64,000 nt of DNA. Origin: an uncultured Actinomycetota bacterium. Lineage in GTDB: Bacteria > Actinomycetota > Actinomycetes > JAHEKZ01. Under the pieces are notes generated by a model. The model saw only the letters and a program-made list of their open reading frames with translations. It ran no database searches and was not told the DNA's origin. Below, piece by piece: positions 1,967 through 35,875 of this stretch. Position 1 is the first letter of the stretch. Every line of letters starts with the position of its first letter. Location of the stretch: NCBI GenBank assembly GCA_963829525.1, contig CAWHIJ010000003.1:640001-704000 (forward strand), written 5' to 3'. The position numbers were made by a program, and so were the translations under genes.

Positions 1967-2060
1967 CTGTGCATTGTTGCGCCTCGCACGTCAGTGAGCC
2001 GGGCGGGCAACGTCCACGCCGCGCCCGTACGCTGGGAGCCGATCGGAGAGGAGCCCCGCG

Positions 2061-2960: not shown

Positions 2961-2962
2961 CA

Positions 2963-3955: not shown

Positions 3956-4097
3956 GAGATGCGCTCAGACTGAGCGGGGAGATCAATCGCGATGTCCCTC
4001 GATCCGCCGATCGAGTGGGCACTTCATCCGGTCGATACAGTCAGAGCGTCGTCATCGGGCACCCGATGAGCCGGATGCGAACGGTCGAGAGGCAGCC

Positions 4098-6653: not shown

Positions 6654-7628
6654 TCAGCCGACCTTGGCCTTGCGGGTCTCCTCGATGATGGCCGGAAGCA
6701 CCTTGCCAATGTCGCCGATGATGGCGTAATCGGCGTAGCCCATGATCGCTGCCTCGGGGTCGGTGTTGATGACGATCATCGTCTTGGAGTTACGACAGCC
6801 GGCGATGTGCTGGGTCGCACCGCTGATGCCACAGGCGATGTAGAGGTCGGGTGCCACCTTGGTGCCGGTCTGCCCCACCTGCTCGGTATGCGGTCGCCAA
6901 CCGTTGCCGGTGACGACGCGCGAACACCCGATCGTGCCGCCAAGGAGCTCGGCGAGCTCTTCGAGTGGAGCAAAGCCATCAGCGCTGCCGACGCCGCGCC
7001 CACCTGAGACGATCACTTTGGCGTCGGCCAGCGACACACCGGTGGACTCCTCGGCCGCAGCTGCCGGCTTGGCAATCACGAGCAGGTCCGCGTCCGACAG
7101 TTGTGGCGTGAACTCTGCAACGGTTCCGGCGCCAGCCCCATCAGGCTCGGCGACAATCGTGTGCGGAACCAGGCTGACCAGTGCTGGCGAGCCGTGCAGG
7201 TTCGCCTCCTCCATGAGGCTGCCGCCCCATCGAGCGCGTTCCACCTTCGTCGGCGACCCAGGGGTGACCTTGACGCAGTCGGCGGCTACGGGCAGGTCGG
7301 TGATGGCACCCAGGTGGGCCAGCACCTCGTTTCCGCGCGGTGATCCGGTTGCCAGGACCACCGATGCCTCGGTGCGCGAGGCGACCTCGGCGGCTGCGCG
7401 CGCCGACGCAAGTGGGGCGTAGTCGGTCAGCCGGTCATGGACGGCGATATGCACGGTCGCGACGCCGTGCGCTGCGAGGGCCTCCGCAACTCCGCTGCCG
7501 TCGGCGCCGACGACCAGAGCATCGAGAGACTCACCGGTCGACGCCGCGAGCGCGCGTCCGTACGTGACGGCTTGAAGGGACAACTCGTCGAGCTGTCCAT
7601 GGTCGTGGTCGACAAGAACCAGCACCAT
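6654..7628 (-). CDS. etfA: Electron transfer flavoprotein alpha subunit
   Basis: VSGGRG, QVGQTG, GISGATQHIAG, INTDPEA. Confidence 0.95.
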   Translation of the reverse strand: MVLVLVDHDHGQLDELSLQAVTYGRALAASTGESLDALVVGADGSGVAEALAAHGVATVHIAVHDRLTDYAPLASARAAAEVASRTEASVVLATGSPRGNEVLAHLGAITDLPVAADCVKVTPGSPTKVERARWGGSLMEEANLHGSPALVSLVPHTIVAEPDGAGAGTVAEFTPQLSDADLLVIAKPAAAAEESTGVSLADAKVIVSGGRGVGSADGFAPLEELAELLGGTIGCSRVVTGNGWRPHTEQVGQTGTKVAPDLYIACGISGATQHIAGCRNSKTMIVINTDPEAAIMGYADYAIIGDIGKVLPAIIEETRKAKVG

Positions 7629-7629
7629 C

Positions 7630-8385
7630 TCAGATCACTCCGATCTGCTTGAAGATCTCGACGACAGCAGGAGCAGCCTCGGGGCCATTGCCCAGGACCT
7701 GCGCCTGCTTGGCCTCTGTGACCGGAACCTCGAGCCTGGTCTTCTCCAGCTTCGACTCCGGGCGCTCGGGGTTGCGGTGTTCGATCGGCTTCTTCTTCGC
7801 GCGGATCCGGCCGGGTACCGACGGATAGCGCGGGATGTTGAGACCGTCGAGCACGGTGACGACCGCGGGCAGGGGCACCTCGTAGAACTCGCGTCCGGTC
7901 TTCACCGGGCGCTCGAAGGTGGCCTTGCCCTCCTCGACCGTGATCCCCTTCACGCCGGTGACGATGGGGCGTCCCAGCTTGTGCGCCACCCGGATCCCGA
8001 CCTGGTAGCCGCTGGCGTCGGCCGACTCGTTCCCCATGATGACAAGGTCGAAGTCGCTCTCGTCCTCGTTGATCGCCTCGGCGATGGCTGACGCCGTCGC
8101 CTGAGGGTCCCACTCCTGGCCGTCGGTCTCGATCAGGATTCCGCGATCGGCGCCGATCGCCATCTGCTCGCGGATCTGCTCTTCGGCCTCAGGCGGACCG
8201 AGGGTGAGCACAGTGACGCTGCCGCCATGCTTCTCGACAATCCGCACCGCTTCCTCGACCGCCACCTCTTCGTGCGGACTGATCGTGAAGCCGAGCTTGG
8301 CCGTCTCTATGTCGCGGCCGTCCTCGGTGATCGTGAACTTGCCCCCGGAAAGGGGGACGCGCTTGATGCAGACCATTACGTCCAT
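7630..8385 (-). CDS. etfB: Electron transfer flavoprotein beta subunit
   Basis: VCIKRVP, AVEEA, GADRG, NIPRYPS; directly upstream of etfA. Confidence 0.95.
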   Translation of the reverse strand: MDVMVCIKRVPLSGGKFTITEDGRDIETAKLGFTISPHEEVAVEEAVRIVEKHGGSVTVLTLGPPEAEEQIREQMAIGADRGILIETDGQEWDPQATASAIAEAINEDESDFDLVIMGNESADASGYQVGIRVAHKLGRPIVTGVKGITVEEGKATFERPVKTGREFYEVPLPAVVTVLDGLNIPRYPSVPGRIRAKKKPIEHRNPERPESKLEKTRLEVPVTEAKQAQVLGNGPEAAPAVVEIFKQIGVI

Positions 8386-10904
8386 CAGGAGAGAATCCGC
8401 TCATTCTTGGGGTCGAACAGGGGCGTGGCCCCAGCGACGGCAACGGTCACCGGGTAGTGCTCGCCGAGGTACTCGACGACGAGCTTGGTGCCTTCGACGG
8501 CGTACTCCGGCGGCAGGTAGCTCATCAGCACGTGCTTGCCTATCGACGGTGCTGAGCCGGCGCTGGTGACGAACGAACGACGTCCGTGTGCGTCGGTGAT
8601 CGGCTGCTTGTCGGGTGTGAGGATCGGCTCCTTGCCCATCATGTACCGCTTCGCGCCGGTGCTGCTCGTGTGGTCGTCGACCGTGAGCGAGCACAGCTTG
8701 GCTACCGGGTCTTCATCGCGGTGCTTGAGGTGCGCCGTCTTACCGATGAAGTCAGCCGCCTTGATCTTTGGTGGCGCCATGCCGGCCTCGACCACATTGA
8801 ACTCGGTCTCGAGCTCGGTACCGAACGCGCGGTAGCCCTTCTCGATGCGACCGGTCGTGCCGTAAACACCGATGCCGACGGGGATCAGGCCGTGTTCCTG
8901 TCCGGCGTTCCAGAGTGCGTCCCACAGTTGGGCGCCCTGTTCCATCGGGACGTAGAGCTCCCAACCGAGGTCGCCGACGTAAGAGATGCGCGACGCCAGA
9001 ACCTTCAACGGTCCGATCTCGATCGTCCTGCAAGTGCCGAACTTGAAGCCCTCGTTCGAGACGTCGTCGCCGGTGATGGATTCCAGGATCGTGCGTGCGT
9101 TCGGGCCCCAGATGCCGAGGGTGGTGAGTGACGAGGTGAGATCGGTGATCTGTGCGGTGCCGTCAGCGGGCAGGTGGTCTCCGAACCACTTGAGGTCGGC
9201 CATCCCGTGTGCGCCGCCAGTGACGACCCGGAAGTGATCGTGTGCGAGGCGCATCACCGTGAGGTCGGACTTGAACCCGCCATTGGCTGACAGAACGGGT
9301 GTGTAGACCACACGGCCGACTGGCACGTCCATCTGCCGCATGCAGACGCCCTGCAAGGCATCGAGCGCACCTGGCCCCTGGATGTCGAACTCGACGAACG
9401 CGGTGAGGTCTACCAGGCCGGCAGTCTCGCGCATCTGCAAGTGCTCGGCGTTGATGATCGGCGACCACCACCGTGACTCCCACTCCGCCGTGCGAGGCAT
9501 GACGGCGTCACCGAACTTATCGACTAGACCAGCGTTGCTCTCGTACCAGAACGCACGTTCCCAACCCGCGGTTTCGTAGAACTCCGCGCCGAGTGCCTTC
9601 TGACGCTCGTAGTACGGCGACAGTCGAACGTTGCGGTTGGACGCCCACTGCTCGTTCGGGTGCACGATTCCGTAGGTCTTGTTGAAGCCCTCGGCGGTGC
9701 GCTCCTTGATGTGCTTGCGCGTCTTCTGGTGGTCGTAGAAGCGGGCGATGTCGGACGCCTGGAGGTCGATCTCGGAGTCGCCGAGCACCATCCACTCCGA
9801 CACCGCCTTGCCGATGCCGGGGCCCTCCTTGATCCAGACTGCTGAGACCGACCAGAGGTTCTTCACCTCGGGAGTTTCACCGAGCAGTGGCATGCCGTCG
9901 GGCGTCAATGAGAGCAGGCCGTTGATGGCGTACTTCTGGCCGACCGTTTCGTCGCCGACGATTTCGGGCATCAACTCGAGCGCCTGCTCGTACTGCAGCT
10001 CGAAGTCTTCGGCAGTGAACGGGAACTCGGTGGGGGACAGCTGGGCCTCTTCAACCGAGGGGAGCTCCTCCGGGTCGTGCAAGATCGCGCGGTGTGCGTA
10101 CGAGCCGATCTCAAGACCGTTGCCGTGCTGGCGCTCGTACATGTTGGTGTCCATGTCGCGCACGATCGGGTGCTCGATGTCTCCCTTGGCATCGGCGAAG
10201 CGCGGTACTGGGCCGACGTCGATCATCTGGTGGACGGCGGGAGTCAGCGGGATCGACGCTCCAGCCATCTTGGCCAGGCGCGGTCCCCACAGGCCAGTCG
10301 CGATGACGACGTACTCGGCATCGATGGTTCCCTTGTCAGTCTCGACCGCCTTGATCTGGCCGTCCTCGACGACCATGCCGGTGACCTCTGTGTTGGCAAA
10401 GGTCTGCAGCGCCCCCATGTCCCGAGCCTTCTCGCGCATGATGGTGCCGGCGCGCAGCGAGTCGACGACGCCGACGCCCGGTGTGTAGAAGCCACCGAGA
10501 ATGACGTCGGGGTCCATGTAGGGGACGAGTTCGACGCACTCTGCCGGTGTGAGCATCCGGCAGCCGTCGATGCCGAAGGACTTCGCCGACTGCATGCGGC
10601 GCCACAGCTCCTGCATGCGCTCCTCGGTGCGGGCTACCTCGATGCCTCCGCACTCGGTGAAGACGCCCATCTCTTTGTACTGACGGACGCTGTCGAACGT
10701 CAGCAGAGCCATCTCTTTGGCGTGGTCCACCGGGAAGATGAAGTTCGATGCGTGGCCGGTGGAACCACCCGGGTTGGGCAGCGGACCCTTGTCGATCTGC
10801 ACGAGGTCGGTCCAGCCGAGGCGGGCCAGGTGGTATGCCATCGAGTTGCCGACGATGCCAGCACCGATGATGACGGCCTTCGCCTGCGAGGGGAGGGTGC
10901 TCAT
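8385..10904 (-). CDS. GcvT-family FAD-dependent oxidoreductase (dimethylglycine dehydrogenase/oxidase-like)
   Basis: N-terminal GAGIVG, GGSTGHA (His at the covalent-flavin position), TPDG, C-terminal folate-binding domain (ISYVGDLGWELY, RIEKGY); 839 aa. Confidence 0.88.
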   Translation of the reverse strand: MSTLPSQAKAVIIGAGIVGNSMAYHLARLGWTDLVQIDKGPLPNPGGSTGHASNFIFPVDHAKEMALLTFDSVRQYKEMGVFTECGGIEVARTEERMQELWRRMQSAKSFGIDGCRMLTPAECVELVPYMDPDVILGGFYTPGVGVVDSLRAGTIMREKARDMGALQTFANTEVTGMVVEDGQIKAVETDKGTIDAEYVVIATGLWGPRLAKMAGASIPLTPAVHQMIDVGPVPRFADAKGDIEHPIVRDMDTNMYERQHGNGLEIGSYAHRAILHDPEELPSVEEAQLSPTEFPFTAEDFELQYEQALELMPEIVGDETVGQKYAINGLLSLTPDGMPLLGETPEVKNLWSVSAVWIKEGPGIGKAVSEWMVLGDSEIDLQASDIARFYDHQKTRKHIKERTAEGFNKTYGIVHPNEQWASNRNVRLSPYYERQKALGAEFYETAGWERAFWYESNAGLVDKFGDAVMPRTAEWESRWWSPIINAEHLQMRETAGLVDLTAFVEFDIQGPGALDALQGVCMRQMDVPVGRVVYTPVLSANGGFKSDLTVMRLAHDHFRVVTGGAHGMADLKWFGDHLPADGTAQITDLTSSLTTLGIWGPNARTILESITGDDVSNEGFKFGTCRTIEIGPLKVLASRISYVGDLGWELYVPMEQGAQLWDALWNAGQEHGLIPVGIGVYGTTGRIEKGYRAFGTELETEFNVVEAGMAPPKIKAADFIGKTAHLKHRDEDPVAKLCSLTVDDHTSSTGAKRYMMGKEPILTPDKQPITDAHGRRSFVTSAGSAPSIGKHVLMSYLPPEYAVEGTKLVVEYLGEHYPVTVAVAGATPLFDPKNERILS

Positions 10905-10954
10905 GGCTTCCCTTTCGTTTCGTTCTTCTGCGATGTGGAGATGGACGGGTCTGA

Positions 10955-11617
10955 CTACAACGACCGGCGGATCGACCCTTCGAATCCGTCGACGTGGGTG
11001 TGCATGGTGGACGCGGCACGATCGGCGTCCCCGTCGCGGATGGCTTCAAGGATGGCGCGGTGCTCGAGGACAGCGTCCTCGAGGTGGCTGACCTTGTCGA
11101 GAGCCAGGAACCAAATGCGAAGCGCGTGCATGTAGTGCTCGTCGAGCACCGACTCCAGGAAGCTGTTGTGCGCAGCCCGGTAGACGAATCGGTGGATGCG
11201 CTGGTCGATCTCGATGAGTCGGCGTCCGGCTGGCTTGACGCTGACCGCGTCGAGCTCGTCGAAGAGGGCCTCCATCTCGACCCGGTCGCCGTCGGTCAGT
11301 CGCTGGGCGGCCAGCTGGGCGGCGAACGGCTCGAGCACGCACCGGACTTCGGAGAGCGAAGCGAGGTCGCGGGCGTCAGCCGGCGCAACAAACATGCCGC
11401 GGCGCGGGTAGACCTCGACGAGCTTGGCCTGGGCCAACGCCCGAAGTGCCTCACGAATCGGGGTGCGGCCGAGTCCGAGTCGGTCCATCAGCTCAGGTTC
11501 GTCGACCAGGCTGCCCGGGGGGAGCTCCAGGGTGACGATCAGCTCGCGCAGCGCGTAGTACGCCTGCTCAGACTGCGAGCGGGCGTCGGGCTGAAGGATC
11601 TCGACCGGGGAGGTCAC
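10955..11617 (-). CDS. GntR (FadR/FCD) family transcriptional regulator
   Basis: HTH LGLGRTPIREAL, C-terminal FCD EHRAILEAI. Confidence 0.92.
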   Translation of the reverse strand: MTSPVEILQPDARSQSEQAYYALRELIVTLELPPGSLVDEPELMDRLGLGRTPIREALRALAQAKLVEVYPRRGMFVAPADARDLASLSEVRCVLEPFAAQLAAQRLTDGDRVEMEALFDELDAVSVKPAGRRLIEIDQRIHRFVYRAAHNSFLESVLDEHYMHALRIWFLALDKVSHLEDAVLEHRAILEAIRDGDADRAASTMHTHVDGFEGSIRRSL

Positions 11618-11619
11618 AA

Positions 11620-11654
11620 GAAAGATATATCAAGCAGGCTGCCCTGTGTATACC
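11620..11654 (-). promoter_or_regulatory. Candidate GntR operator/promoter
   Basis: Palindromic GATATATC (11624-11631) and GTATAC just upstream of the gntR start in GC-rich DNA. Confidence 0.45.
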
Positions 11655-11925
11655 CCTGAGGGTGACCGTTCCACCCTGTGCAACGCCCGTCGGGCCGTCA
11701 CCCCCTGCTCGCCGGTTCCCTGAACGTTCCGACGGTCACGGGGTGGGGTACATCGGCGGTTTGGTCCCATGGTCAGGCAGTGAACCGGCCCGCGTCCCCG
11801 CATGTGCGTCAGGCGGACGAGGTCAACATGGAGTGGGAGCGCCGTTACCGCGCTTGCGATCCTGGCGCCGTTTCGCCATGGACGTAGCAGTCCCACCTTG
11901 CCTGGAGGGAGCCGGACGTTCACCA

Positions 11926-11969
11926 GGTGCGCACTCGGCAGGCAAGACCGTCATTGGGGTGCGCACTCG
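11926..11969. repeat. 12-bp direct repeat with palindromic GTGCGCAC core (possible hairpin/terminator)
   Basis: ggtgcgcactcg at 11926-11937 and 11958-11969, just downstream of the pterin-binding gene. Confidence 0.4.
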
Positions 11970-11979
11970 AGGGGCTCTG

Positions 11980-12843
11980 TCAGGCCTTCGCTGCGGCTTC
12001 CTTGGCACGGTGCTGCTGGATCCAGGCCGCGCCCCACTCGTCGTGACCGAGCATGAGGTCAGCCCCCTTGACTGCGGTCACGACCTGCGGAGTGCGGGCG
12101 TCCATGATGGCGCTGGTCAGACCAGCGCGCATCGCCATCGGGATGAAGACAGCGTTCAGCGTGTGACGGTCGGGCATCCCGAAGGACACGTTCGACGCGC
12201 CGAGCGTCATGTTCACACCAATCTGGTCGCGAATCATGCTGATGGCCTCCATGGTGCGGTCGGCGTGCAGCGAGTCTGCGCCGATCGGCATCGCCAGCGG
12301 GTCGATGACGATGTCCTCGAGCGGGATGCCGTACTTCGTCGTCGCGAGGTCGACGAACTTCTTGGTCAGCTCGACGCGGCGGTCGGGGTCGATCGGTATC
12401 TCGAACTCGTCGTTGGGCAGCGCGATAATCGCGGCGTTGTGACGCTTGACCAGCGGCAGGATGAGGTCCATGCGCTCGTCCTCGACCGTCACCGAGTTCA
12501 CCAGCGCCTTGCCTTCATAGGCGCCAAGGCCAGCCTCGAGGGCCTCGACGACCGACGAGTCGATGCAGAGTGGCATGTCGGTGAGCGACTGCACCAGCTT
12601 GACCGCCTTGGCCAGCAGCTCGGCCTCGTCGGTCAGCGGAACGCCCATGTTGACGTCGAGCACCATGGCGCCGCCGGCAACCTGGGCGGCGACGTCGGTC
12701 TCGATGGCCGACAGGTCACCGGCCCGCAGCTGCTCCTGGAACGCTTTGCGTCCGGTCGGGTTGATGCGCTCGCCGATGATGCAGAACGGCTGGTCGTCAC
12801 CGATGATGACCTGCTTGCTCGCCGAGCTGAGAACCGTGTGCAT
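11980..12843 (-). CDS. Pterin-binding methyltetrahydrofolate:corrinoid methyltransferase (stand-alone MetH folate domain / AcsE-like)
   Basis: IIGERINPTG, LDVNMG, CIDSS, VNSV, IDPL, GASNVSFG. Confidence 0.88.
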   Translation of the reverse strand: MHTVLSSASKQVIIGDDQPFCIIGERINPTGRKAFQEQLRAGDLSAIETDVAAQVAGGAMVLDVNMGVPLTDEAELLAKAVKLVQSLTDMPLCIDSSVVEALEAGLGAYEGKALVNSVTVEDERMDLILPLVKRHNAAIIALPNDEFEIPIDPDRRVELTKKFVDLATTKYGIPLEDIVIDPLAMPIGADSLHADRTMEAISMIRDQIGVNMTLGASNVSFGMPDRHTLNAVFIPMAMRAGLTSAIMDARTPQVVTAVKGADLMLGHDEWGAAWIQQHRAKEAAAKA

Positions 12844-12902
12844 GCTGCTCCTGTTTCTGTGGTGGGCAGTCGCCGACGCGACTCCCGTATCGTGCCGCGA
12901 AC

Positions 12903-13361
12903 TTACGGCCGCGGCGAGTGGAACGGTGTCTGGAAGGGCCCCTCGTACTCAACGAGCGAGAGCTCGGGGTTGACTTCGTCAGCGGTGGCCAGGGACTTGC
13001 CCTGCCAGCCCGCCGGGGTCTCGCGGTCGCGCCCGGTGAGGAGGTTGGTCCAGGACGCTTCCCCCTCAAGCTGGTTGTTGACCGGAGGTCGCAGCTCGTG
13101 GATGTGCTCGCGCCAGGACTTCGGAATCAACGGGAGTGTGCGGCTGCGTTCCTCGGCCTTGACCCAGACACAGCGCATCTCAGGGACGACCTCGCAGTGG
13201 CCGTTCTCCCGCACGCCGCCGCAGGGCCCGTTGCGAAGCGTCTTGGGACAGGTCATCGGACATGTCATGCCGGTGGAGTGCAGGACACACTGGCCGCACA
13301 TGCGGCAGTCCCACACGGGTCCCTTGACCGCGTGCTCGATGATGGGCAGGAGTTTGGGCAT
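12903..13361 (-). CDS. Cys-rich MTHFR-associated (MetV-like / MTHFR C-terminal domain) protein
   Basis: CRMCGQC...CPMTCPK..RNGPCGG...CEV...CVW, 8 Cys in the family pattern. Confidence 0.8.
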   Translation of the reverse strand: MPKLLPIIEHAVKGPVWDCRMCGQCVLHSTGMTCPMTCPKTLRNGPCGGVRENGHCEVVPEMRCVWVKAEERSRTLPLIPKSWREHIHELRPPVNNQLEGEASWTNLLTGRDRETPAGWQGKSLATADEVNPELSLVEYEGPFQTPFHSPRP

Positions 13362-13365
13362 GTGA

Positions 13366-14031
13366 TCAGGCCCTGGTCAGGGCGCGTCGCTTCTCGAGGA
13401 GTTCTTTGGCGCGGCGGACGGCGGTGGAGGCGTCAGCGGCGTACCCGTCAGCACCGACGGCGTCGGCGTACTCCTGGGTCACCGGGGCACCCCCCACCAT
13501 CACGATCACCTTGTCCCGCAACCCAGCCTTCTCCAACGCGTTGATGTTCGCCTTGAACATCGGCATCGTCGTGGTCAAGAACGCACTGAACCCGACAATG
13601 TCGGGGTTGTGCTCCTCGATCGCGGCAACGAACTTCTCCGGAGCCACCTGCACCCCCAGATCAATCACCTCAAACCCAGCACCCTCCAACATGATGTTGA
13701 CCAAGTTCTTCCCAATGTCATGCACATCACCCTTGACCGTGCCCATCAAGAACTTGCCCACCGTCTCAGCACCAGTAGCAGCCAACAACGGCCGCAACAC
13801 CTCCAACGCCCCCGACATCGCCCGACCAGCGATCAACATCTCCGGAACGAAGAAGTCACCCCGCTCAAACCGGGCCCCCACCTCCTCCAACGACGGAATC
13901 AACGCCTCGAACAACAACGTCTCCGGACCCATCCCCATCCCAAGACCGGCATTGGTCAGCTCCAACACCGCAGGAGCATTGCCCACCAACGTCTCATCAA
14001 ACAAGCCCTTCAAAATCTCCTCAGGCGTCAT
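13366..14031 (-). CDS. Corrinoid (cobalamin-binding) protein
   Basis: Cap domain FVPEML, DxHxxG motif GDVHDIGKNLV, SAFLTTT, GGAPV. Confidence 0.95.
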   Translation of the reverse strand: MTPEEILKGLFDETLVGNAPAVLELTNAGLGMGMGPETLLFEALIPSLEEVGARFERGDFFVPEMLIAGRAMSGALEVLRPLLAATGAETVGKFLMGTVKGDVHDIGKNLVNIMLEGAGFEVIDLGVQVAPEKFVAAIEEHNPDIVGFSAFLTTTMPMFKANINALEKAGLRDKVIVMVGGAPVTQEYADAVGADGYAADASTAVRRAKELLEKRRALTRA

Positions 14032-14804
14032 GCCACACCCACCTTCCGGTTGCGGGGACGTTCGGCGGGATCGAGTGCGCGAGAAATGGCCCGCGTCTCA
14101 GCGATGAGAAGCCGTCCGACTCCGGCGATGCGGTTGCCCGTGAGCCGCACTGAAGGGCCGGTGACGGAGACGGCGGCGACGACGGTGCCGTCGGCATCGG
14201 TGATCGGCGCGGCGACCGCGACCAGGCCCGGCTCGAGTTCGTTGTCACTGACGGCAAACCCTCTGCGCCGTACTCCCTCGAGATCGTCTTCGAGGCGTTC
14301 GCGGGTGATCAGGGTGCGGTCGGTGCGTCGATCCAGACGCCCCCGCGGCATTTGGACGGCCCCGTAGGCCAAGAAGACTTTGCCAAGCGCCGAACAGTGG
14401 AACGGAACGTCGCGACCCACCCAGTTGACGGCGCCCAACAGGAAGCGTGAGTCGACCTGGGCAATCTGGTCGACGGCTGTTGGACCCGGAACAGCCAGGT
14501 TGACGGTCTCGCCGGTCAGCTCTCCGAGTCGAGTCAGGTGCGGCTGGGCGAGGCGGAGCAGGGCGTCAGCGCGTCCCGATCCGGCGTACCGCGCCAGGAC
14601 TGGACCGGGCCGGACGGAGGAGTCGCTGCCCCGGCGGACCAGCCCGTGTCGCTCGAGACTGGTGAGGATGCGCGACGCGGTGCTCTTGGGCAGCTCTGCT
14701 GCTGCAGCGAGCTCGGCGAATGGCACGGGGCGGTCGGACTGCAGGACGGTCACCAGCAGGGTCGACGCACGGTCGACTGCCTGTGTACCGGTGGGAGGAG
14801 GCAT
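14028..14804 (-). CDS. IclR family transcriptional regulator
   Basis: QAVDRA, LPKSTASRIL HTH, HCSALGK, AVAAPI; start set at MPPPTG; stop overlaps the corrinoid gene start. Confidence 0.9.
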   Translation of the reverse strand: MPPPTGTQAVDRASTLLVTVLQSDRPVPFAELAAAAELPKSTASRILTSLERHGLVRRGSDSSVRPGPVLARYAGSGRADALLRLAQPHLTRLGELTGETVNLAVPGPTAVDQIAQVDSRFLLGAVNWVGRDVPFHCSALGKVFLAYGAVQMPRGRLDRRTDRTLITRERLEDDLEGVRRRGFAVSDNELEPGLVAVAAPITDADGTVVAAVSVTGPSVRLTGNRIAGVGRLLIAETRAISRALDPAERPRNRKVGVA

Positions 14805-14861
14805 GGAGTTCCTGTTCTCGGTCTGCCGGTGCTGCGAGACGGGTGTGGGCAATGGAACATC

Positions 14862-14882
14862 GAGTTCTACTATGTGGAACTC
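14862..14882. promoter_or_regulatory. Candidate IclR operator in the divergent iclR/mttB-like spacer
   Basis: Imperfect inverted repeat GAGTTCTACTATGTGGAACTC. Confidence 0.6.
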
Positions 14883-14980
14883 AGATTCCACGTTGCGATA
14901 GTAGGATTTCGAATCCGGGCGGTCAAGGGATCGCGCCGACTTCCCCCGTTCAGTGGGATTTGAGTTCGAAAGGTGCGCCG

Positions 14981-16420: not shown

Positions 16421-16430
16421 CCGAATCCAT

Positions 16431-16478
16431 CAACGTGAAGGGTGGCTGGGGCTATAGCCCCAGCCACCCTTCACGTTG
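16431..16478. terminator. Perfect 48-bp palindrome between convergent genes (bidirectional terminator candidate)
   Basis: caacgtgaagggtggctggggcta|tagccccagccacccttcacgttg. Confidence 0.8.
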
Positions 16479-16490
16479 TGCTATGTCTGG

Positions 16491-17468
16491 CTAGCCGTTC
16501 AGCCAGGCGTCCACCTTGTCGGGGTTGTCATCGATCCACTGCTGCGCAGCATCTTCGGGTGCCATCCCGTCTGCAGCGATGGCCTTGGCAACGGAGTTCT
16601 GGTCGTCGTTGGTCCAGGTGAAGTTCTTGACCAGGTCAGCGGCCGGGCTCCCGGAGTTCATGAACTCAGTCGCGGCGACCTTGTTCAGTGGATAGGGCGG
16701 GTAGTCGCACGCGACCTTGGCCGGATCGGCATCGCACCCATCGGTGTAGGGGGGCAGGTCGACCTTCACCAGCGGCACCTCGGAGAGGAACCACTGCGGC
16801 TCGTAGAAGTATCCGATCAGGAACTCCTTGTTCTGCTCGGCCTTGCGGAACGCCTGGATCAAAGCGGCTTCACTACCTGCGAAGACGACCTCGAAGTTCA
16901 GACCAAGGTTCTGCACGAGGGCCTCGTCGTTGGTGACGAAGGATGGGTCGCCGTCGAGCAGCTGGCCTTTGTCGCCGGTCTCTGCCGTGGCGAAGTCACT
17001 GGCGTAGTTGTTGAGGTTTTCCCAGTTGTCGACGATGTCAGGCTTGGCCTCGGCCAACCACGGCGGGATGTACCAGCCGATGACGCCCTGGTTGCCCTGG
17101 CTGCCGACGTCTTCAGCAACACCCTGCTGGTCGATGTACTTCTTCTCGAGGTCGGGGTGGCCCCAGTTCTCGATGACGACATCAACATCACCGGTGGCAA
17201 AGCCCTGCCAGGAGATCTCCTCCTTGAGGTCCTTGTAGTTGACCGTGCATCCCAGTTTGGTTTCCGCGACCTGGCCCACGACGTAGGCGGATGCCTCGTA
17301 GCCAACCCACGGGTTGACCGCCATATTCATCTCGCCGCAGTCTGCGCCGGAGGTGCTGCCGCCACCCGCGGACTCATTGATGTCGCTACCGCCACAGGCG
17401 GCCAGCGTGAGGCCGGCGGCGACGGCGACGGCCGTCATACGTCCGGCCCGCTTCTTCGTTACACGCAC
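16491..17468 (-). CDS. Glycine betaine/choline ABC transporter substrate-binding lipoprotein (ProX/OpuAC-like)
   Basis: LAAC lipobox, NPWVG, DVVIENW, YFYEPQW; GAAGGAG RBS before GTG 17468. Confidence 0.88.
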   Translation of the reverse strand: MRVTKKRAGRMTAVAVAAGLTLAACGGSDINESAGGGSTSGADCGEMNMAVNPWVGYEASAYVVGQVAETKLGCTVNYKDLKEEISWQGFATGDVDVVIENWGHPDLEKKYIDQQGVAEDVGSQGNQGVIGWYIPPWLAEAKPDIVDNWENLNNYASDFATAETGDKGQLLDGDPSFVTNDEALVQNLGLNFEVVFAGSEAALIQAFRKAEQNKEFLIGYFYEPQWFLSEVPLVKVDLPPYTDGCDADPAKVACDYPPYPLNKVAATEFMNSGSPAADLVKNFTWTNDDQNSVAKAIAADGMAPEDAAQQWIDDNPDKVDAWLNG

Positions 17469-17508
17469 TTCTTCTCCTTCGGTCGGGCCGCACGGTTGCG
17501 GCGTCGGT

Positions 17509-19680
17509 TCACGCCTTCTCAGCGCGTCCATAGCGCGCCGCAGTGTGGACGGTGATGCGGTCGAGCATGATCCCGAGCGCCGTGATGGCAATGGCTGCTG
17601 CCAGTCCCTTGCCGTAGAGCTCTCCTTGCGAGAACCCGCTGATCACGAGGAAGCCGAGACTGCCACCGCCGACCAGCGCGCCGATCACCACCATGGATAG
17701 CACAAAGAGCAACCCCTGGTTGGCTGCCAACACCATCGATCCCTTCGACATCGGCAGCTGTACCTTGCTGATCATCTGCCATCGGCTAGATCCGATGGCC
17801 TGTGCTGCCTCGACCGTGGTCGGTGCAACGCTGCGGATTCCGTCAGCGGCGATCTTGATCGAGACGGGAGCCGCGTAGAGCACAGCAGCGGCGATTGCCA
17901 GGAACTTACCCGGCGGGAACAGCAACAGCGCGGGGATGAGGTAGACCAGCGATGGCATGGTCTGCAGCAGGTCGAGAATGGGGCGTAGTGCGGAGTCCAC
18001 TCGGTGGCTGCGGCCCATCCAGGTTCCGATCACGACCCCAAAGATCATGACGGCGGCCGTCGCGACCAGTGTCATCGACAGGGTCACCATCGAGTCTTGC
18101 CACAGGCCGACGGCGAAGATGAGGGAGAGGCACACAGCAGTCGGGAGCAGCGCCTCGGCGGCGCCGAGGTACGCACCCGCGGCGAGGAGCGCCACGACGA
18201 CCAACCAGTAGGGGATCCACGGAATATCGGGCACCTGGGATGCGTAGTAGCCCGCTCCGAGAACTCCGGCGACGCAGAGTGCGCCACCACCGATGACTCG
18301 CGACCGATCAGCTTGGCCAGCTCCCCCGAGCAGCGCAGCAATCGCAAGGACGGCAAGTGCGACCAGCCACCAGGGTGAGTTCGCCATCAGGTCTTCGAGG
18401 GGGTTGAGCACCCAAACGGTGACGGTGTCGTTGACCCAAGTCGTGAAGGAACCAACGGCATCAGTGAATGTCTTCGCCCAGTCATTGACGCGGTCGGCGA
18501 TCTGCTGCCCGAGGTCAGACTTAGGGAAGACCGACCAGCTCAGCTGGCTGTGGGACACGTAGATGCAGACCAGGGTGATGGCGCCGAGCACGCCGAGCAC
18601 GATGCGGCGCTGCTTTTCACTGCTGCCGGACCTGGCAGTCATCTCCGCTCGCTGTCCCGCGCGCACCGCACCGCGGTCGAGCAGAATGGCCAAGATCACC
18701 AGGCACATCCCGGCGACGAATGCGACGCCGATGTTGAGGATGGTGAGAGCTCGCACGATTGGGAGTCCGAGCCCAGGACCGGCGATGAAGGCTGCGATAA
18801 CGGCCATCGAGAGGGCAGCCATGATGGTCTGGTTGAGCCCGACGATGATCGTCCGCCGAGACATCGGCAGCTGTACTTTGGCCAGCAGCTGTTGCGACGT
18901 TGAGCCCATAGATGTGGTGGCCTCCACGGTCGTTGGCGAGACCGTGCCCAACGCGTGTGCGGTGATGCGTACGAGGGGCGGCAACGCGTAGATCGTGGTC
19001 ACCACCACCGCTCCTGCATTGCCGATTCCGAAGAGCAGTGCGAGTGGCGCCAGATAGGCGAAGGACGGCATCGTCTGCATGGCGTCCAACACCGGCGTTA
19101 TGCCGGCCGAGGCTCTCCGGCTACGAAACATCCAGATGGCGAGCGGGATACCGATGAGCACGCAGATGGTGACCGATACGCCGGTAATGACCAGGGTGTC
19201 GATCGAGTCTTCCCAGTAACCCAGGTATCCCACTGCCAACATGGTGAATAGGCTGAAGACTGCGATGCGTATGCCGCTCAAGGCATAGGCAACAAGGACC
19301 ACGAGTGCGACGACACCGACCCAGCCGATCTGGGCGACTTGGAGCGGGCGGTCAGGGTCACTGACGAACACCTGTTGCAGCGTGGTCACCACCCAGTTGA
19401 GCCCGTCGCCGATCCAGATGAAGGGCTTGAGCAACCAGCTGTCGTTGAACTTTGCGTCCTGGATGTTGCCGTAGAGATCCGTCAGCCACTGTTGGAAGCC
19501 GGTGACTTCGGCATTGGGAAGGTCTTGGGTGGCTCGCCCCTGGAGCAGCTTTGCCAGGACCGCCCAGACAATGAGAACGATCCCGAGCGCCATCCAGCGA
19601 CGACGGTTCGTTCTCTCGTCCGGTGGGGGTGGTACCTCCTCGACCGGATGCTCCAGCTCGGCGAGCTCGATGGTCGTCAC
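17509..19680 (-). CDS. Betaine/choline ABC permease with two fused ProW-like domains
   Basis: Two copies of D..QTMPS..YL.P and an EAA-type loop followed by KVQLPMS. Confidence 0.88.
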
Positions 19681-20750
19681 GACGGAGTCTCCTCCGCGAC
19701 GATGACGCGCAGAATGTCGTCCTGGTCGACGACGCCGAGCAGCTGCCCGTTCTCGACCACTTTGACGGGGTCAGCCGAGTCGAGCACGCGCCGGGCGGCG
19801 TCTCGGACGATGGTCCCCGGCGCCATCTCGGGCCCAGTCATGGCTTCGTCGGGACGTGGGGGCCGCATCACCCAGCTCAAGTTCAACACGTGCGAGCGCG
19901 GCACCTCGCTGACAAAGTCACGAACGTATTCGTCAGCCGGTGCACCGACGACCTCGGCCGGCGTCCCCATCTGCACGAGTGCGCCGTCGCGCATGATCAG
20001 TATTCGGTCACCGAGCTTGAGCGCCTCCGCGAGGTCGTGCGTGATGAAGACCATCGTCTTGCCCACCTCGTGGTGCAGCCGGATGACTTCGTTCTGCATA
20101 TCCCGCCGGATCAAGGGGTCGAGAGCGGAGAACGGCTCGTCGAAGAGCAAGACCGAGGGGTCGACCGCGAGTGCCCTGGCCAGGCCGACTCGCTGTTGCA
20201 TTCCACCCGAGAGCTGGTCGGGGTAGGCGTTCTCGTTACCGGAGAGCCCGACGAGGTCGACCATCTCCTGCGCCCGAGTCCGGCGATCGGACTTCGACAC
20301 TCCCCTGACCTCGAGTCCGTAGCCGATGTTGTCGATCACCTTGCGGTGGGGGAGTAGGCCGAAGTGCTGGAAGACCATGGAAACGTGGTGACGGCGGAGT
20401 TCGCGCAGTCGTCCTTCTGACATGGCAACGACGTCTTCGCCATCAATCGTTACGCGGCCGGCGGTCGGCTCGATCAGTCGGGTGAGGCAGCGCACCAGCG
20501 TCGACTTCCCCGAGCCGGACAGCCCCATCACCACGAAGACTTCGCCGGACGCGACGTCGAAGCTCACGTCACGGACGGCCGCAGTGCAGCCGGTCTTCGC
20601 GAGCAGCTCCGATCGCGAGAGATCGGCGTCCGGTGAGCCGACGATCTTGTCGGCCCTCGGACCGAATACCTTCCAGAGGCTCCGAACCGTCAGGGCAGGC
20701 TGGCCGTCAGTGGACGCGGCAGCGCCCCGCTCGTCGATCGTCGCCGTCAT
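19677..20750 (-). CDS. Betaine/choline ABC ATP-binding protein (ProV-like)
   Basis: [30 protein letters not shown]. Confidence 0.93.
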
Positions 20751-22447
20751 GAGGCAGCTCCTTCGTTACGGGGATCGCCTGGTGGATAGAGCGGGGTGCC
20801 CTCGCGGTAGCGGTAGAACGGGGCATCGGACGGTGCGAGCGGTGCGTCACCGTTGATCAGGTCGGCGGCCTTCTCGGCGAGCATCATCACCGGCGCATAG
20901 ATGTTGCCGTTGGTGACGTATGGGAACGAACTTGCGTCAACAACGCGCAGGCCTTCGACGTCGTAGACCTTCATCGACGCCGGATCGAGAACAGCGTCAT
21001 CGCCAACGCCCATCTTGGCGGTGCATGAGGGGTGGAGCGCGGTCTCGGCGTCCTCGCGCACCCACTCGAGAATCTCTTCCTCGGTCTCAACCGATGGTCC
21101 TGGGGAAAGCTCGCCATCGTTGAAAGGGCCGAAGGCGGGCTGGGTGAGAATGCTGCGCGCCACCTGGATCGCTTCGACCCACTCACGTCGATCCTGGTCG
21201 GTGGAGAGGTAGTTGAACTGCATCGACGGGTGCTCCATCGGGTCGGTGGAGCGGATCTTCACCCAGCCGCGCGCATCGGAGTACATCGGACCGATGTGCA
21301 CCTGGTAACCGTGGCCCTTGGTCGGTGAGGTGCCGTCATACCTGATGGCGATCGGTAAGAAGTGGAACATCAAGTTGGGATAGTCGACGTCGTCGTTGCT
21401 ACGGGTGAAGCCGCCGCCCTCGAAGTGGTTGGTGGCACCGAGCCCCTTGCGCTGGAAGAGCCATTGGGCGCCGATGCCTGGCCGCTTCCACCAGGCCAGC
21501 CCTGGCGCAATCGAGACCGGCAGCTTGCTGGCGTACTGGATGTAGACCTCCAGGTGGTCCTGGAGGTTGGCGCCAACGCCGGGAAGGTCGGCGACCACGG
21601 GAATCCCGAGCGACTGGAGATGGCTGGCGTCGCCGACTCCGGACAGCTGCAGGAGCTGAGGTGAGTTGATGGCGCCGCCACAGAGAATGACTTCGCCGGC
21701 CTTCACCGAACGCTTCATGCGTCCGGCACGGACGTACTCGACGCCGACGGCACGCTTACCCTCGAAGACCACCTTGGTGGCGTGAGCGAGAGTTTCAACA
21801 TCGAGGTTCTTACGGCCCATAACCGGGTGCAGATAGGCACGGGCTGCGCTGAGCCTGCGGCCTTTGTGGATGTTGCGGTCGAACCTGGCGAAGCCTTCTT
21901 GCCGGTAGCCGTTCACGTCATCGGTGAGGGGGTAGCCAGCCTGCTGTGCAGCTTCGAAGAAGGCGCCGAAGAGGGGGTTGGTGGCCGGTCCGCGTTCGAG
22001 TACGAGCGGGCCGCTGCCGCCGCGCCATTGGTCAGCACCAGCGAGGCAGGTCTCCATGCGCTTGAAGTAGGGCAGGCAGTGAGCAAAGTCCCAGTTCTCC
22101 ATGCCCTTGTCGGCGCCCCAGCGTTCGTAGTCCATGGGGTTGCCGCGCTGGAAGATCATCCCGTTGATGCTGCTGGAGCCGCCGAGCACCTTGCCGCGGG
22201 CGTGAAAGACACGGCGGTTGTTCATGTACGGCTCGGGGTCGGTCTCGTAACGCCAGTCGTAGAACCGGCTACCGATCGGGAAGGGCAACGCGGCCGGCAT
22301 GTGAATGAAGGGGTCCCAGATGAAGTCAGGGTGGCCCGCCTCGAGCACCAGAACTGAGGTGCCGGGGTCGGCGCTCAGGCGGTTGGCCAGTGCAGATCCG
22401 GCCGACCCACCGCCGACGATGACGATGTCGTAGCGCTCATCGCTCAT
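20747..22447 (-). CDS. betA: Choline dehydrogenase
   Basis: [43 protein letters not shown] (GMC family). Confidence 0.93.
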
Positions 22448-22482
22448 CTTGCTGCTCCATCACTCGAAGTCCGTTCTGTCAT

Positions 22483-23952
22483 TCAGCCACTGAACCAGCG
22501 CTGAGGGGCTGGCGCGGTGTTACGCCAGATGTGCTTGGTCTCTTGGTACTCCGCGAGTCCGTGGCGTCCGAGCTCGCGACCGAAGCCGGACTGCTTGTAG
22601 CCGCCCCACTCTGCTTGGGGGACGTACGGGTGGTAGTCGTTGATCCAGACGGTGCCTGCGCGAAGCCCGGCAGCCACGCGGTCGGCCTTTGCGGGGTCAG
22701 AAGTCCAAACGGCGCCCGCCAGGCCGTAGTCGGTGTCGTTGGCCAGACGCAGGGCCTCGGCCTCGTCGGTGAACGTCTCGACAGTCAGCACAGGCCCGAA
22801 CGACTCTTCGCGGACAACCTGCATGTCCGCTGTACAGCGGTCGAACACCGTTGGTGGGTAGTAGTAGCCGCCGGCGAGCTCGGGGGCATCGGGCCGGGCT
22901 CCTCCACAACGAAGCACCGCTCCTTCGGCAATGCCTGCCGCGACGTAGGCCTCCACCTTCGCGCGGTGCCCTTCGGAGGTGAGGGGACCGGTCTCGGCCC
23001 TGGCGTCGAAGGGACCGCCCATGCGGATCGTCGACGCCCGACGAACAAGCTCGTCGACGAAGTCGTCGTGGAGCGACTCCTCGATCAGCAGCCGAGCGCC
23101 CGCCGAGCACACCTGGCCCGAGTGGAGGAACACTGCGGTTAGTGCCATGTCGAGTGCTGCATCACGGTCGGCGTCAGCGAAGACGATGTTCGGGTTCTTG
23201 CCGCCGAGCTCGAGTGAGACCTTCTTCACGGTGGGAGCGGCCGCCGCCATGATGATGCGTCCGGTGACCAGTCCGCCGGTGAAGGAGACCAGGTCTACGT
23301 CGGGGTGAGTCGACAACAGGGCGCCGACGTTAGGCCCTGTGCCGAGCACCAAGTTCGCGACGCCCGGTGGCAATCCGGCGGCATCTAGCTCGCGCATGAG
23401 CAGGATGGCCGTTGACGGCGTCAGCTCACTCGGCTTGAGGACGAAGGTGTTGCCGGCGGCCAACGCTGGAGCAACTTTCCACGAGGTCTGCAGCAATGGG
23501 TAGTTCCACGGCGTGATCAGCCCGCAGACGCCGACCGGTTCGTGAACAATGCGGCTTTCGACATCGGGACGGTCCACTTCGATGGCGCGGGAGTCGAGGT
23601 CGGTGGCGAGCTTGGCGTAATAGCGGAATACCGAGGTGATGTCGTCCATGTCGTACTCGGCCTCGACGAGGCGCTTGCCGGTGTCGAGGGCCTCCGCCCT
23701 CGCGAACTCGGCCCGGTGTCTCTCAAGGGCGTCGGCGACACGGTCTAAAAGGGCACCGCGCTCAGCGGGAGAAGTGGTTGGCCACGGTCCAGTGTCAAAT
23801 GCGGTCCGAGCGGCCGAGATCGCGTCTTCGGTGTCCGCGGCCGTGCCTTCATCAACGGTTGTCACCAGTGAGCCGTCAGCGGGGCAGCGAATCTCTCGCG
23901 TGTTCTGTTCACGCGCGCTGGTCCATGCCCCGCCGATGAAGAAGTCGGGCAC
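22483..23952 (-). CDS. betB: Aldehyde dehydrogenase, probably betaine-aldehyde dehydrogenase
   Basis: PWNYP, LELGGKNP, GQVCSAG, EESFGP; upstream of betA; GAGGGGA RBS before GTG 23952. Confidence 0.82.
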   Translation of the reverse strand: MPDFFIGGAWTSAREQNTREIRCPADGSLVTTVDEGTAADTEDAISAARTAFDTGPWPTTSPAERGALLDRVADALERHRAEFARAEALDTGKRLVEAEYDMDDITSVFRYYAKLATDLDSRAIEVDRPDVESRIVHEPVGVCGLITPWNYPLLQTSWKVAPALAAGNTFVLKPSELTPSTAILLMRELDAAGLPPGVANLVLGTGPNVGALLSTHPDVDLVSFTGGLVTGRIIMAAAAPTVKKVSLELGGKNPNIVFADADRDAALDMALTAVFLHSGQVCSAGARLLIEESLHDDFVDELVRRASTIRMGGPFDARAETGPLTSEGHRAKVEAYVAAGIAEGAVLRCGGARPDAPELAGGYYYPPTVFDRCTADMQVVREESFGPVLTVETFTDEAEALRLANDTDYGLAGAVWTSDPAKADRVAAGLRAGTVWINDYHPYVPQAEWGGYKQSGFGRELGRHGLAEYQETKHIWRNTAPAPQRWFSG

Positions 23953-23970
23953 GCGGCTCCCCTCGGTTGC

Positions 23971-24009
23971 GGTGTGACACACCATGCAGGCGGAGCCCCG
24001 TCCCGTCAA
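23971..24009 (-). promoter_or_regulatory. Candidate bet operon promoter with overlapping inverted repeat
   Basis: Minus strand TTGACG-17 bp-CATGGT; GGTGTG-A-CACACC (23971-23983) overlaps the -10/+1 region. Confidence 0.45.
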
Positions 24010-24082
24010 TAGAACGTTGCGGTGCCGTGACGTTCGTTCCACGCGGTGTCGTCCCGGGAGGAATCGGTCTAATCTCCCCTGC

Positions 24083-35163: not shown

Positions 35164-35193
35164 CCCCGACTCAAAGACAGACGAAGGACACCC

Positions 35194-35874: not shown

Positions 35875-35875
35875 C

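Follow-up and report, generated by a model that had tools for sequence, protein, structure and literature searches.

A candidate cobalamin-dependent route of glycine betaine demethylation in an uncultured actinobacterium, with modules probably shared with methionine synthesis

Few osmolytes are released into soils, sediments, and waters in larger amounts than glycine betaine and choline. To our knowledge, the removal of the first methyl group by aerobes without a Rieske oxygenase was not explained until 2025, and then for Proteobacteria alone. An aerobic MtgBCD system, with a RamA-like activase, a DUF1638 protein, and MetF2, was shown in Ruegeria pomeroyi by genetics and proteomics (PMC12478193; 2025), and co-located MtgBCD clusters have been reported in several proteobacterial classes (PMC12478193). 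Aerobic MtgBCD has also been studied in Phaeobacter inhibens, the subject of a 2025 preprint (10.64898/2025.12.19.695462). Here we describe a block of genes at positions 6654 to 24084 of a 64,000-nucleotide stretch of DNA (the window; positions 640,001 to 704,000 of contig CAWHIJ010000003.1, assembly GCA_963829525.1) from an uncultured member of the Actinomycetota. We propose that this block encodes the catabolic half of an MtgBCD pathway of the aerobic type, which would transfer a methyl group of glycine betaine to tetrahydrofolate (THF) within a choline-to-glycine route and which would be shared with methionine synthesis; with the enzyme activities predicted from the genes, we put the probability of this reading at roughly 0.7.

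The actinobacterial genome has in common with R. pomeroyi DSS-3 and Phaeobacter a PF06253 methyltransferase, stand-alone corrinoid and pterin proteins, a 2Fe-2S RamA/RACo-like activase, DUF1638, a dedicated MetF, and a homocysteine module, a likeness drawn from the set of components and not from sequence comparison with SPO2108/SPO2134 or MtgB1. Also common to these organisms are an aerobic host and a genome without MetH and MetE. The betAB genes and the genes for the demethylation of dimethylglycine (DMG) are co-located, as has been reported for other marine bacteria (PMC12478193). In contrast to Ruegeria and Phaeobacter, the host belongs to the Actinomycetota, a MetV subunit accompanies MetF, a divergently transcribed IclR gene is found with an operator-like array, the corrinoid gene is duplicated (98% identical), the operon is spread over two loci 274 kb apart, and B12 synthesis appears to be absent.

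An initial annotation, made from the sequence of the window, had regarded the cluster as the best candidate for an undescribed system. This cannot be upheld, as the aerobic MtgBCD system has already been published for R. pomeroyi (PMC12478193) and the type is known from Phaeobacter as well; what is new here is the phylum, the distant RACo-DUF1638-MetF locus, and the link to methionine. The accompanying statement that no such system was known to be characterized in Actinomycetota stands, in that our literature search found no actinobacterial characterization of an MtgBCD-type system; supplementary genome tables of the Ruegeria and Phaeobacter papers, which lay outside that search, may list such genomes. 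The only mention of the phylum found was the assignment of 5% of TARA mtgC reads to Actinomycetota (PMC12478193).

Open reading frame (ORF) listing together with Pfam and NCBIfam scans confirmed every gene that the initial annotation had named in the block, i.e., those for a betaine/choline importer, BetB, BetA, an MttB family protein, a corrinoid protein, a pterin methyltransferase, a MetV-like protein, a DMG flavoprotein, electron transfer flavoprotein (ETF), and two regulators (Table 1), and all of the ORFs are intact. The originally given extent was essentially right, except that its end at 23952 falls inside the longest betB ORF, which reaches 24084. The genes appear to form four transcription units: betB-betA-ABC importer, mttB alone, iclR-corrinoid protein-MetV-like-pterin methyltransferase, and gntR-DMG flavoprotein-etfBA. 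Neighboring genes of the betB-betA-importer unit share overlaps of a few bases, and the real start of the BetB-like gene, for which we give the longest ORF, probably lies further inside.

A route from choline via betaine and dimethylglycine to sarcosine is the most economical reading of this gene content. In the pathway that we propose, an OpuA-type ABC importer would take up choline or betaine, and BetA and BetB would convert choline to glycine betaine. The MttB family enzyme would then take one N-methyl group from betaine, leaving dimethylglycine, and load it onto the corrinoid protein in its Co(I) state, and the pterin-binding methyltransferase would move the methyl group from the corrinoid to THF. 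Methyl-THF would be oxidized by a methylene-THF reductase of the MetVF type, whose MetV subunit is encoded in the block and whose MetF lies at a distance of 274 kb. The DMG flavoprotein would demethylate dimethylglycine, giving sarcosine, with the carbon going to THF and the electrons probably to EtfAB, and paralogous flavoproteins encoded elsewhere in the genome would convert sarcosine to glycine. Corrinoid protein oxidized to Co(II) would be re-reduced by the RACo/RamA-like activase with DUF1638. For methionine, the corrinoid protein or proteins and the pterin methyltransferase would run in reverse together with the homocysteine module at C3:114.6 kb. The demethylation chemistry itself needs no oxygenase. 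The initial description of the whole as an O2-independent route is not supported, as BetA is a GMC choline dehydrogenase, the flavoprotein most resembles an oxidase that uses O2, and nuo and menaquinone-type genes lie in the window.

The MttB-like protein is of the non-pyrrolysine form, as initially stated. Its start was set to the ATG at 14981 behind GAAAGG (the longest ORF, from 14720, overlaps iclR), and the resulting frame runs for 479 amino acids without an in-frame stop, which points to a non-pyrrolysine enzyme. No in-frame UAG was found, and the score against TIGR02369, the model of the pyrrolysine-containing trimethylamine enzyme, is 273 bits at a cutoff of 525. Matches in the Protein Data Bank are 4yyc (bit score, 447), MtgB of Desulfitobacterium hafniense (2qne and 9yce; bit score, 398), and the pyrrolysine-containing MttB 7xcl (bit score, 129). 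The best solved relative, 4yyc, is labeled a putative trimethylamine methyltransferase in an entry that names no function, and the motifs VYGPPF, LPFR, and H-x-AGWLEGGL are common to both proteins. Its local motif AGWLEGGL, found in the window protein and in 4yyc, which we take to be from a rhizobium, stands against AGILQYFM in D. hafniense MtgB.

In D. hafniense MtgB, Tyr97 and Phe356 make cation-pi contacts to the quaternary nitrogen, and Arg312 and His348 bind the carboxylate (PMC13080624). With the numbering anchored on R312, H348, and F356 of the printed HMMER alignment to 2qne, three of these four betaine-contacting residues are present in the window protein, namely Y98 (corresponding to Tyr97), R312, and H348, and all three are invariant in 81 of 81 orthologues (the window and 80 related loci), as is W352. 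The actinobacterial system has in common with MtgB/MtgC/MtgA of D. hafniense (2qne, 9yce; PMC13080624) the non-pyrrolysine superfamily, a full-length match, Tyr97/Arg312/His348, and a three-component logic of methyl transfer to THF. Unlike in that anaerobe, Gly-Gly stands in the place of Phe356 and Tyr355, a Trp stands at position 352, and the corrinoid protein scores under the MtgC cutoffs. As Phe356 is not kept, the MttB-like protein is not an orthologue of D. hafniense MtgB by the four-residue motif, and we class it as MtgB-like in predicted function. Trp352 may supply the second aromatic ring in place of Phe356. The AlphaFold model (20 input sequences; mean predicted local distance difference test [pLDDT] score, 78) has pLDDT values below 50 in all of the active-site loops (residues 100 to 105, 136 to 145, 234 to 240, 278 to 289, and 350 to 356), so it is no guide to a replacement of Phe356 by Trp352, which lies in the last of these loops. 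A further MttB paralogue, solitary and with 40% identity to the window protein, is encoded away from the block at C3:464680-466086 (L085:8641-10095); it has Gly where Tyr98 stands, has no corrinoid genes nearby, and is kept in most relatives.

Conserved gene order links the MttB-like protein to betaine. A scan of one genome per prokaryote species yielded 598 stretches, 590 of which encode MttB-like relatives, and the best 80 were taken for locus comparison. All 80 are from Actinomycetota, with MttB-like proteins that are 75 to 97% identical, and their carriers are Nocardioides, Phycicoccus, Agilicoccus, and Nostocoides as well as metagenome-assembled genomes labeled Nanopelagicales, Kineosporiaceae, Sporichthyaceae, and others. 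Such a synteny survey across the phylum had been suggested with the initial annotation, and it bears the cluster out: the corrinoid protein, pterin methyltransferase, and IclR genes adjoin mttB in 69 of the 70 loci whose upstream sequence exceeds 3.5 kb, and iclR is present and divergent to mttB in 79/80. Downstream sequence exceeds 8 kb in 59 loci, of which 50 have betA (at least 60% identity) and 47 have betA together with betB; 4 of the 9 loci without betA bear a DMG-type flavoprotein instead. The linkage of mttB to enzymes that make betaine and consume dimethylglycine is thus no accident of the window. RACo adjoins or follows the pterin methyltransferase in 65/80 loci, DUF1638 is found in 53/80, MetV in 22/80, and a MetF-MetV pair in 21/80. 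By Pfam, the operon of a Nanopelagicales-like genome (L006) reads corrinoid-MetV-MetF-pterin methyltransferase-RACo (with 2Fe-2S and RACo domains)-DUF1638, with a serine dehydratase gene adjoining and a 4-bp overlap between the MetF and MetV genes, and that of Nocardioides sp. Root1257 (L019) reads corrinoid-pterin methyltransferase-RACo-DUF1638, with PurU beside mttB. Only the window and one other of the 80 loci (L002) have MetV without MetF or RACo.

The closest solved relative of the DMG flavoprotein is the N,N-dimethylglycine oxidase of Arthrobacter globiformis (1pj5), with a bit score of 558 over residues 6 to 837 and the same four-domain architecture; mammalian dimethylglycine dehydrogenase (4pab) scores 316 bits. 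The domains expected of a DMG oxidase or dehydrogenase, DAO, FAO_M, folate-binding GcvT, and the C-terminal barrel, are all present. Here etfB and etfA follow directly downstream, which suggests a dehydrogenase that passes its electrons to ETF and not to O2; on the basis of this adjacency, ETF is probably the electron acceptor. The gntR gene is co-located with the DMG flavoprotein gene in five loci (L002, L003, L004, L054, and L066). Four further FAO_M paralogues are encoded in the genome, two of which were scanned and both of which have the DAO plus GcvT architecture, and these paralogues are candidates for the conversion of sarcosine to glycine. In the region C3:2386169-2393794 (L087), another DAO-GcvT flavoprotein, of 850 amino acids, is encoded about 4 kb from an MmuM-type homocysteine S-methyltransferase and may be a dehydrogenase of sarcosine or another N-methyl amino acid. 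An FAO_M match over two frames at C3:1994243-1994411 suggests that a paralogue from the DMG/sarcosine dehydrogenase family is frameshifted.

The block does not suffice on its own. The initial annotation had placed a three-component system in one block, and the MttB, corrinoid, and pterin proteins are indeed encoded there; the activase, DUF1638, and MetF are encoded 274 kb away, at a second locus (C3:927.8-931.9 kb) where a second corrinoid copy, MetF, RACo, and DUF1638 follow one another with overlapping stops and starts. The corrinoid protein of the block carries the DxHxxG motif as D102-V-H104-D-I-G107. The two corrinoid copies are identical at 216 of 221 residues, and the DNA repeat (672 bp; 98.2% identity) ends almost at the ends of the ORFs, with wholly different flanking genes. 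In the congeners in which the B12 and pterin matches were listed together (G001, G004, G005, G010, G011, and G013), the gap between them is about 500 bp, as in the window, and four of these (G001, G004, G005, and G010) have a second B12 copy elsewhere. The gap is about 1390 bp in other genera of the family (G014 to G019), which fits MetV plus MetF. The split arrangement, on this comparison of genomes, appears to predate the 98% identity of the corrinoid copies, which suggests gene conversion between them.

The loss of the accessory genes from the block, with RACo in place in most related loci, could also mean that the block is a decaying remnant, in which the B12 step died when a rearrangement removed RACo, DUF1638, and MetF and in which BetAB and the importer serve only to make an osmoprotectant. 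The absence of B12 synthesis would agree with this, as would the MttB orthologue of congener G010 (C6:118762-120199), which is in two pieces (residues 1 to 398 and 395 to 479) that may reflect a frameshift or an assembly error. Such decay is nonetheless highly improbable given that all ORFs of the block are intact, as are the accessory genes elsewhere, that the congeners and L002 maintain the split arrangement at 86 to 92% protein identity, that the corrinoid copies are held at 98% identity, and that a B12 uptake and salvage operon lies behind a riboswitch.

MetVF-type methylene-THF reductases are known from acetogens, e.g., Clostridium ljungdahlii (PMC8760232, PMC8515935). In common with these, MetF would be paired here with a small Cys-rich MetV (PF12225); unlike in acetogens, the host is aerobic, the direction is probably oxidative, and the genes are 274 kb apart. 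The eight Cys residues of MetV are invariant across 19 homologues, a profile search found no solved MetV homologue, and MetF, the only PF02219 match in the genome, resembles solved methylene-THF reductases only distantly (bit score, 34). Of the 22 related loci with a MetV gene, 21 have MetF next to it. MetV is predicted to bind the distant MetF: the model of their complex scored 0.70, against 0.00 for the best control (among reference sets, 58 of 80 solved complexes reach this value, as do 2 of 110 mismatched pairs), with at least 80% of contacts agreeing between runs and a partner pLDDT of at least 68. A lesser matter, of interest to one-carbon biochemistry, is this pairing of MetV with MetF in an aerobic organism.

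In roseobacters, betaine demethylation and methionine synthesis both draw on MtgC and MtgD, and MetH is lacking from about 70% of the genomes that have MtgBCD (PMC12478193); a split methionine synthase is the subject of a report on P. inhibens (PMC5764234). The absence of MetH and MetE, which the initial annotation had missed, is what suggests a similar double use here. In the host genome (2.96 Mb; 3 contigs; 97% complete), the best match to TIGR02082 scores 150 bits at a cutoff of 1011, only split modules being found, and PF01717 has no match. The MetH-type modules of the genome are one pterin module, two B12 modules, and one stand-alone homocysteine-binding module, with the pterin methyltransferase of the block as the sole match to positions 319 to 591 of the MetH model. 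The homocysteine module is a stand-alone S-methyl_trans protein of 293 amino acids (L086:6590-7471; bit score, 221) whose best NCBIfam match is NF005718, betaine-homocysteine S-methyltransferase (bit score, 264; under the cutoff). We presume that NF005718 represents the S. meliloti-type protein, reread as MtgE by Mausz et al., the founding protein of the model being our assumption. A second homologue (L087:6817-7794) was rejected as a net methionine synthase or betaine-homocysteine methyltransferase, as it is of the MmuM type (NF007020; bit score, 366; cutoff, 215). A MetX homologue (bit score, 422) suggests that the organism makes homocysteine. With neither MetH nor MetE and with a single pterin module, the corrinoid and pterin modules, together with the homocysteine module, are most likely the only methionine synthase, so that the modules for betaine probably double in this role.

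Among 41 relatives, including the genome itself and the unpublished G025 and G033, full-length MetH is found in none of the 14 genus genomes (69 to 99% complete), compared to 25 of the 27 others. Within the six family genomes from other genera, MetH and a full-length MttB orthologue occur together in four (G015, G016, G017, and G019); G018 has the MttB orthologue without full-length MetH, and G014 has MetH and an MttB orthologue in two pieces on separate contigs. Taken alone, the lack of MetH and MetE, the single pterin module with its stand-alone homocysteine partner, and the duplication of the corrinoid gene, one copy of which lies by MetF-RACo-DUF1638, would also agree with a housekeeping split methionine synthase, to which the MttB-like protein feeds betaine methyl groups via the corrinoid to the homocysteine module, as a B12-dependent equivalent of betaine-homocysteine methyltransferase with only minor transfer to THF. 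We consider this improbable. The block is joined to a complete catabolic set of DMG flavoprotein, ETF, and MetV, and the related genera with full-length MetH have the same MttB cluster, which is therefore independent of the loss of MetH. Moreover, R. pomeroyi mutants in mtgC or mtgD are not rescued by methionine when grown on betaine (PMC12478193).

The corrinoid itself seems to be scavenged rather than synthesized. No match to CobQ was found in the genome, and no B12 riboswitch was found in or near the block. The single cobalamin riboswitch of the genome lies 837 kb from the block, ahead of an operon (L088; C3:1484372-1491654) that encodes two proteins without a Pfam match, a CbiQ-like component, a double ABC ATPase, an ECF S-component, and a metallo-beta-lactamase-CobU fusion. 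The lack of CobQ and the riboswitch-led ECF transporter with CobU suggest that the organism imports and remodels corrinoids. A tentative scenario, which we regard as possible and rather less likely than not to be correct in all its parts, would join these observations. An ancestral operon of corrinoid-MetV-MetF-pterin methyltransferase-RACo-DUF1638 would have been duplicated, and the copies would have lost complementary genes, giving a betaine-controlled locus (corrinoid-MetV-pterin methyltransferase beside mttB) and a housekeeping locus (corrinoid-MetF-RACo-DUF1638). The modules of the betaine demethylase would now be the only methionine synthase of the genus, gene conversion would keep the corrinoid genes 98% identical, and MetV would be a betaine-inducible subunit that lets the single MetF run backwards on methyl-THF. 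Both methionine synthesis and betaine catabolism would then depend on the corrinoids of neighbors.

A number of points weigh against the pathway proposed here. The biochemistry of this cluster is read from genes alone, as is that of every actinobacterial copy. The corrinoid protein matches best the NCBIfam model MtgC_2, at 203 bits and under the cutoff of 370, and the activase scores under the AcsV cutoff. The MetV and MetF genes stand apart in this genome, the nearest solved relative of the DMG flavoprotein is an O2-using oxidase, and the flow of electrons to ETF rests on adjacency. The sole pterin methyltransferase is in an apparently IclR-controlled operon, a poor fit with housekeeping methionine synthesis, and the absences on which the methionine link depends are strong rather than absolute in a genome that is 97% complete. 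As to the substrate, 81 of 81 orthologues have Gly where D. hafniense MtgB has Phe356, and sequence likeness is a poor guide in the MttB superfamily: MtyB and MtcB, 53% identical, are named for different substrates (PMC8604678). Enzymes that act on other acidic quaternary amines likewise have R312 and H348 (PMC13080624). The genome also encodes six homologues of the Rieske oxygenase alpha subunit (Ring_hydroxyl_A), any of which could be a betaine monooxygenase of the GbcA type.

These last observations leave some room for an MttB family enzyme that uses another methyl donor (choline, proline betaine, carnitine, gamma-butyrobetaine, or another methylated amine), with betaine demethylated elsewhere, e.g., by a Rieske monooxygenase of the GbcA type. 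We hold this to be unlikely. In 47 of 59 loci the orthologue stands beside betA and betB, whose product is betaine, several loci pair the orthologue with a DMG-type flavoprotein, whose substrate is the product of betaine demethylation, Tyr98 is invariant in the orthologues and lost in the unlinked paralogue, and Pfam scans of the block found no genes for carnitine or proline betaine. Glycine betaine is thus a likely substrate of the MttB-like protein, mainly by gene context. The betaine route put forward in the initial annotation accordingly keeps its place as the most economical reading, strongly backed by the conserved synteny and supported by the match to 1pj5, with a substrate specificity that is predicted and with Gly in place of Phe356.

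Control of the divergent mttB and iclR-corrinoid units is probably exerted by IclR, judging from the intergenic region. The operator-like array of GTTCCA/TGGAAC half-sites recurs ahead of mttB in the majority of 23 related loci that were inspected and is followed there by the conserved boxes TAGTAGGAT and GGTCAAG (plus strand). The promoter-like site of the iclR-corrinoid unit is the only sigma-70-like match between 6000 and 24600 (1 found versus 1.6 expected, not above chance), and it was retained because its boxes recur in relatives; the counts of the promoter and terminator scans were not above those of shuffled controls. The palindrome upstream of gntR is a hint only, because the window has 7 matches to the half-site pattern, versus 4.4 expected, so that such sites are not rare. 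Between the convergent mttB and ABC operon lies a perfect palindrome of 48 bp (16431-16478; self-match in reverse, 100%), which is likely a bidirectional terminator by its sequence and position and was not among the matches of a simple terminator scan.

The orthologue, at a threshold of E ≤ 1e-200 (69 to 100% identity), was found in 31 of 401 genomes and 18 of 163 genera in an even sample of the class, one of the 31 being the unpublished G041; it is present in all 11 sampled genomes of the host's own family and in 19 of 389 outside the family. If the proposed pathway is correct, the cluster extends the B12-dependent betaine route to the Actinomycetota, and the carriers include cultured strains of Nocardioides, Phycicoccus, and Agilicoccus, so that the route is directly testable. 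The methionine synthesis of the genus would also be tied to external corrinoid, a possible reason why this uncultured sediment lineage resists cultivation. The DNA runs that contain most of the stretch (at least 0.56 of sampled words; four runs from one study) are labeled freshwater sediment metagenomes, and six RNA runs contain only 0.05 to 0.11 of sampled words. Contigs from four RNA runs are 150 to 560 nucleotides long and mostly 90 to 95% alike, and hence from relatives. Near-identical contigs were found only on the corrinoid gene (234 nucleotides, 3 differences) and the pterin gene (176 nucleotides, 5 differences); RNA libraries may contain DNA, and these contigs are no proof of transcription, co-induction, or operon structure, just as stretches that lack coverage carry no weight.

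Table 1. Features of the block, of the second locus, and of the regulatory regions (window positions unless marked C3 or L084)
Feature	Positions	Strand or location	Basis and remarks
EtfA, electron transfer flavoprotein alpha	6654-7628	-	PF00766 115 bits, PF01012 93 bits
EtfB, electron transfer flavoprotein beta	7630-8385	-	PF01012 132 bits; 1-base overlap with upstream gene
Dimethylglycine oxidase/dehydrogenase-like flavoprotein, THF-binding GcvT domain, 839 aa	8385-10904	-	Pfam DAO, FAO_M, GCV_T, GCV_T_C
GntR/FCD regulator, opens gntR-dmg-etfBA unit	10955-11617	-	PF00392 and PF07729
IclR-box-like palindrome, GTTCCA-N5-TGCAAC	11668-11684	upstream of gntR	one mismatch to GTTCYA-N5-TGGAAC
Predicted methyl-corrinoid:tetrahydrofolate methyltransferase (MtgD/MtgA-like), 287 aa	11980-12843	-	PF00809 97 bits; NF005719 310 bits (cutoff, 259)
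Small MetV-like protein rich in Cys, 152 aa, predicted to partner the distant MetF	12903-13361	-	PF12225/DUF5981 85 bits
Corrinoid protein, MtgC-like	13366-14031	-	PF02607 (B12-binding_2) and PF02310 (B12-binding)
IclR family regulator	14028-14807	-	PF09339 and PF01614; likely start ATG 14807 behind AGGAA; longest ORF reaches 14891
Operator-like array, four half-sites 11 bp apart, TGGAAC-N5-GTTCTA-N5-TGGAAC-N5-ATTCCA	14852-14891	between iclR and mttB	read from sequence
Promoter-like site of iclR-corrinoid unit, TTGACC-17 nt-TACTAT	14898-14926	-	conserved boxes read as -35/-10
Non-pyrrolysine MttB superfamily methyltransferase, 479 aa, predicted glycine betaine:corrinoid methyltransferase (MtgB-like)	14981-16420	+	PF06253 632 bits
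OpuAC-type betaine/choline substrate-binding protein	16491-17591	-	PF04069 129 bits; choline-binding TIGR03414 weak, 57 bits
Fused double ABC permease	17509-19680	-	PF00528, two stretches
ABC ATPase, C-terminal CBS domain	19677-20750	-	PF00005 120 bits; PF00571 weak
BetA, choline dehydrogenase (GMC family)	20747-22447	-	TIGR01810 827 bits (cutoff, 732)
BetB-like betaine aldehyde dehydrogenase	22483-24084	-	PF00171 564 bits; TIGR01804 BADH 594 bits, under equivalog cutoff of 668.6
Corrinoid copy 2	C3:927803-928474 (L084:5803-6474)		counterpart of window 13362-14033
RACo/RamA-like activase	L084:7384-9231	outside window	Fer2 and RACo domains; intact
DUF1638 protein	L084:9228-9851	outside window	intact

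The G+C content of the window is 62 to 68%. An ORF of 567 amino acids at 11662-13365 (plus strand) was dismissed as spurious, as it has no family match and lies antisense to three real genes. Beside the block, at 806-5804, are menaquinone-type genes for an AMP-binding ligase, a MenB-like member of the enoyl-CoA hydratase family, a MenC-like member of the enolase superfamily, and a MenD-like thiamine pyrophosphate enzyme, followed by an ORF without a Pfam match (5965-6651). On the other side, a gene for a P-type cation ATPase (24430-27207) directly adjoins betB, and nuo genes for the 30-kDa, 49-kDa, 51-kDa, NuoG-like, and NuoH-like subunits of NADH dehydrogenase I are found at 33014-40629, in an operon that probably extends downstream of 40629. 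The nuo operon and the menaquinone-type genes point to a respiring organism. A gene for a 2-oxoacid:ferredoxin oxidoreductase-like protein, a possible low-potential electron source or sink for RACo or MetVF, lies at 52594-54456.

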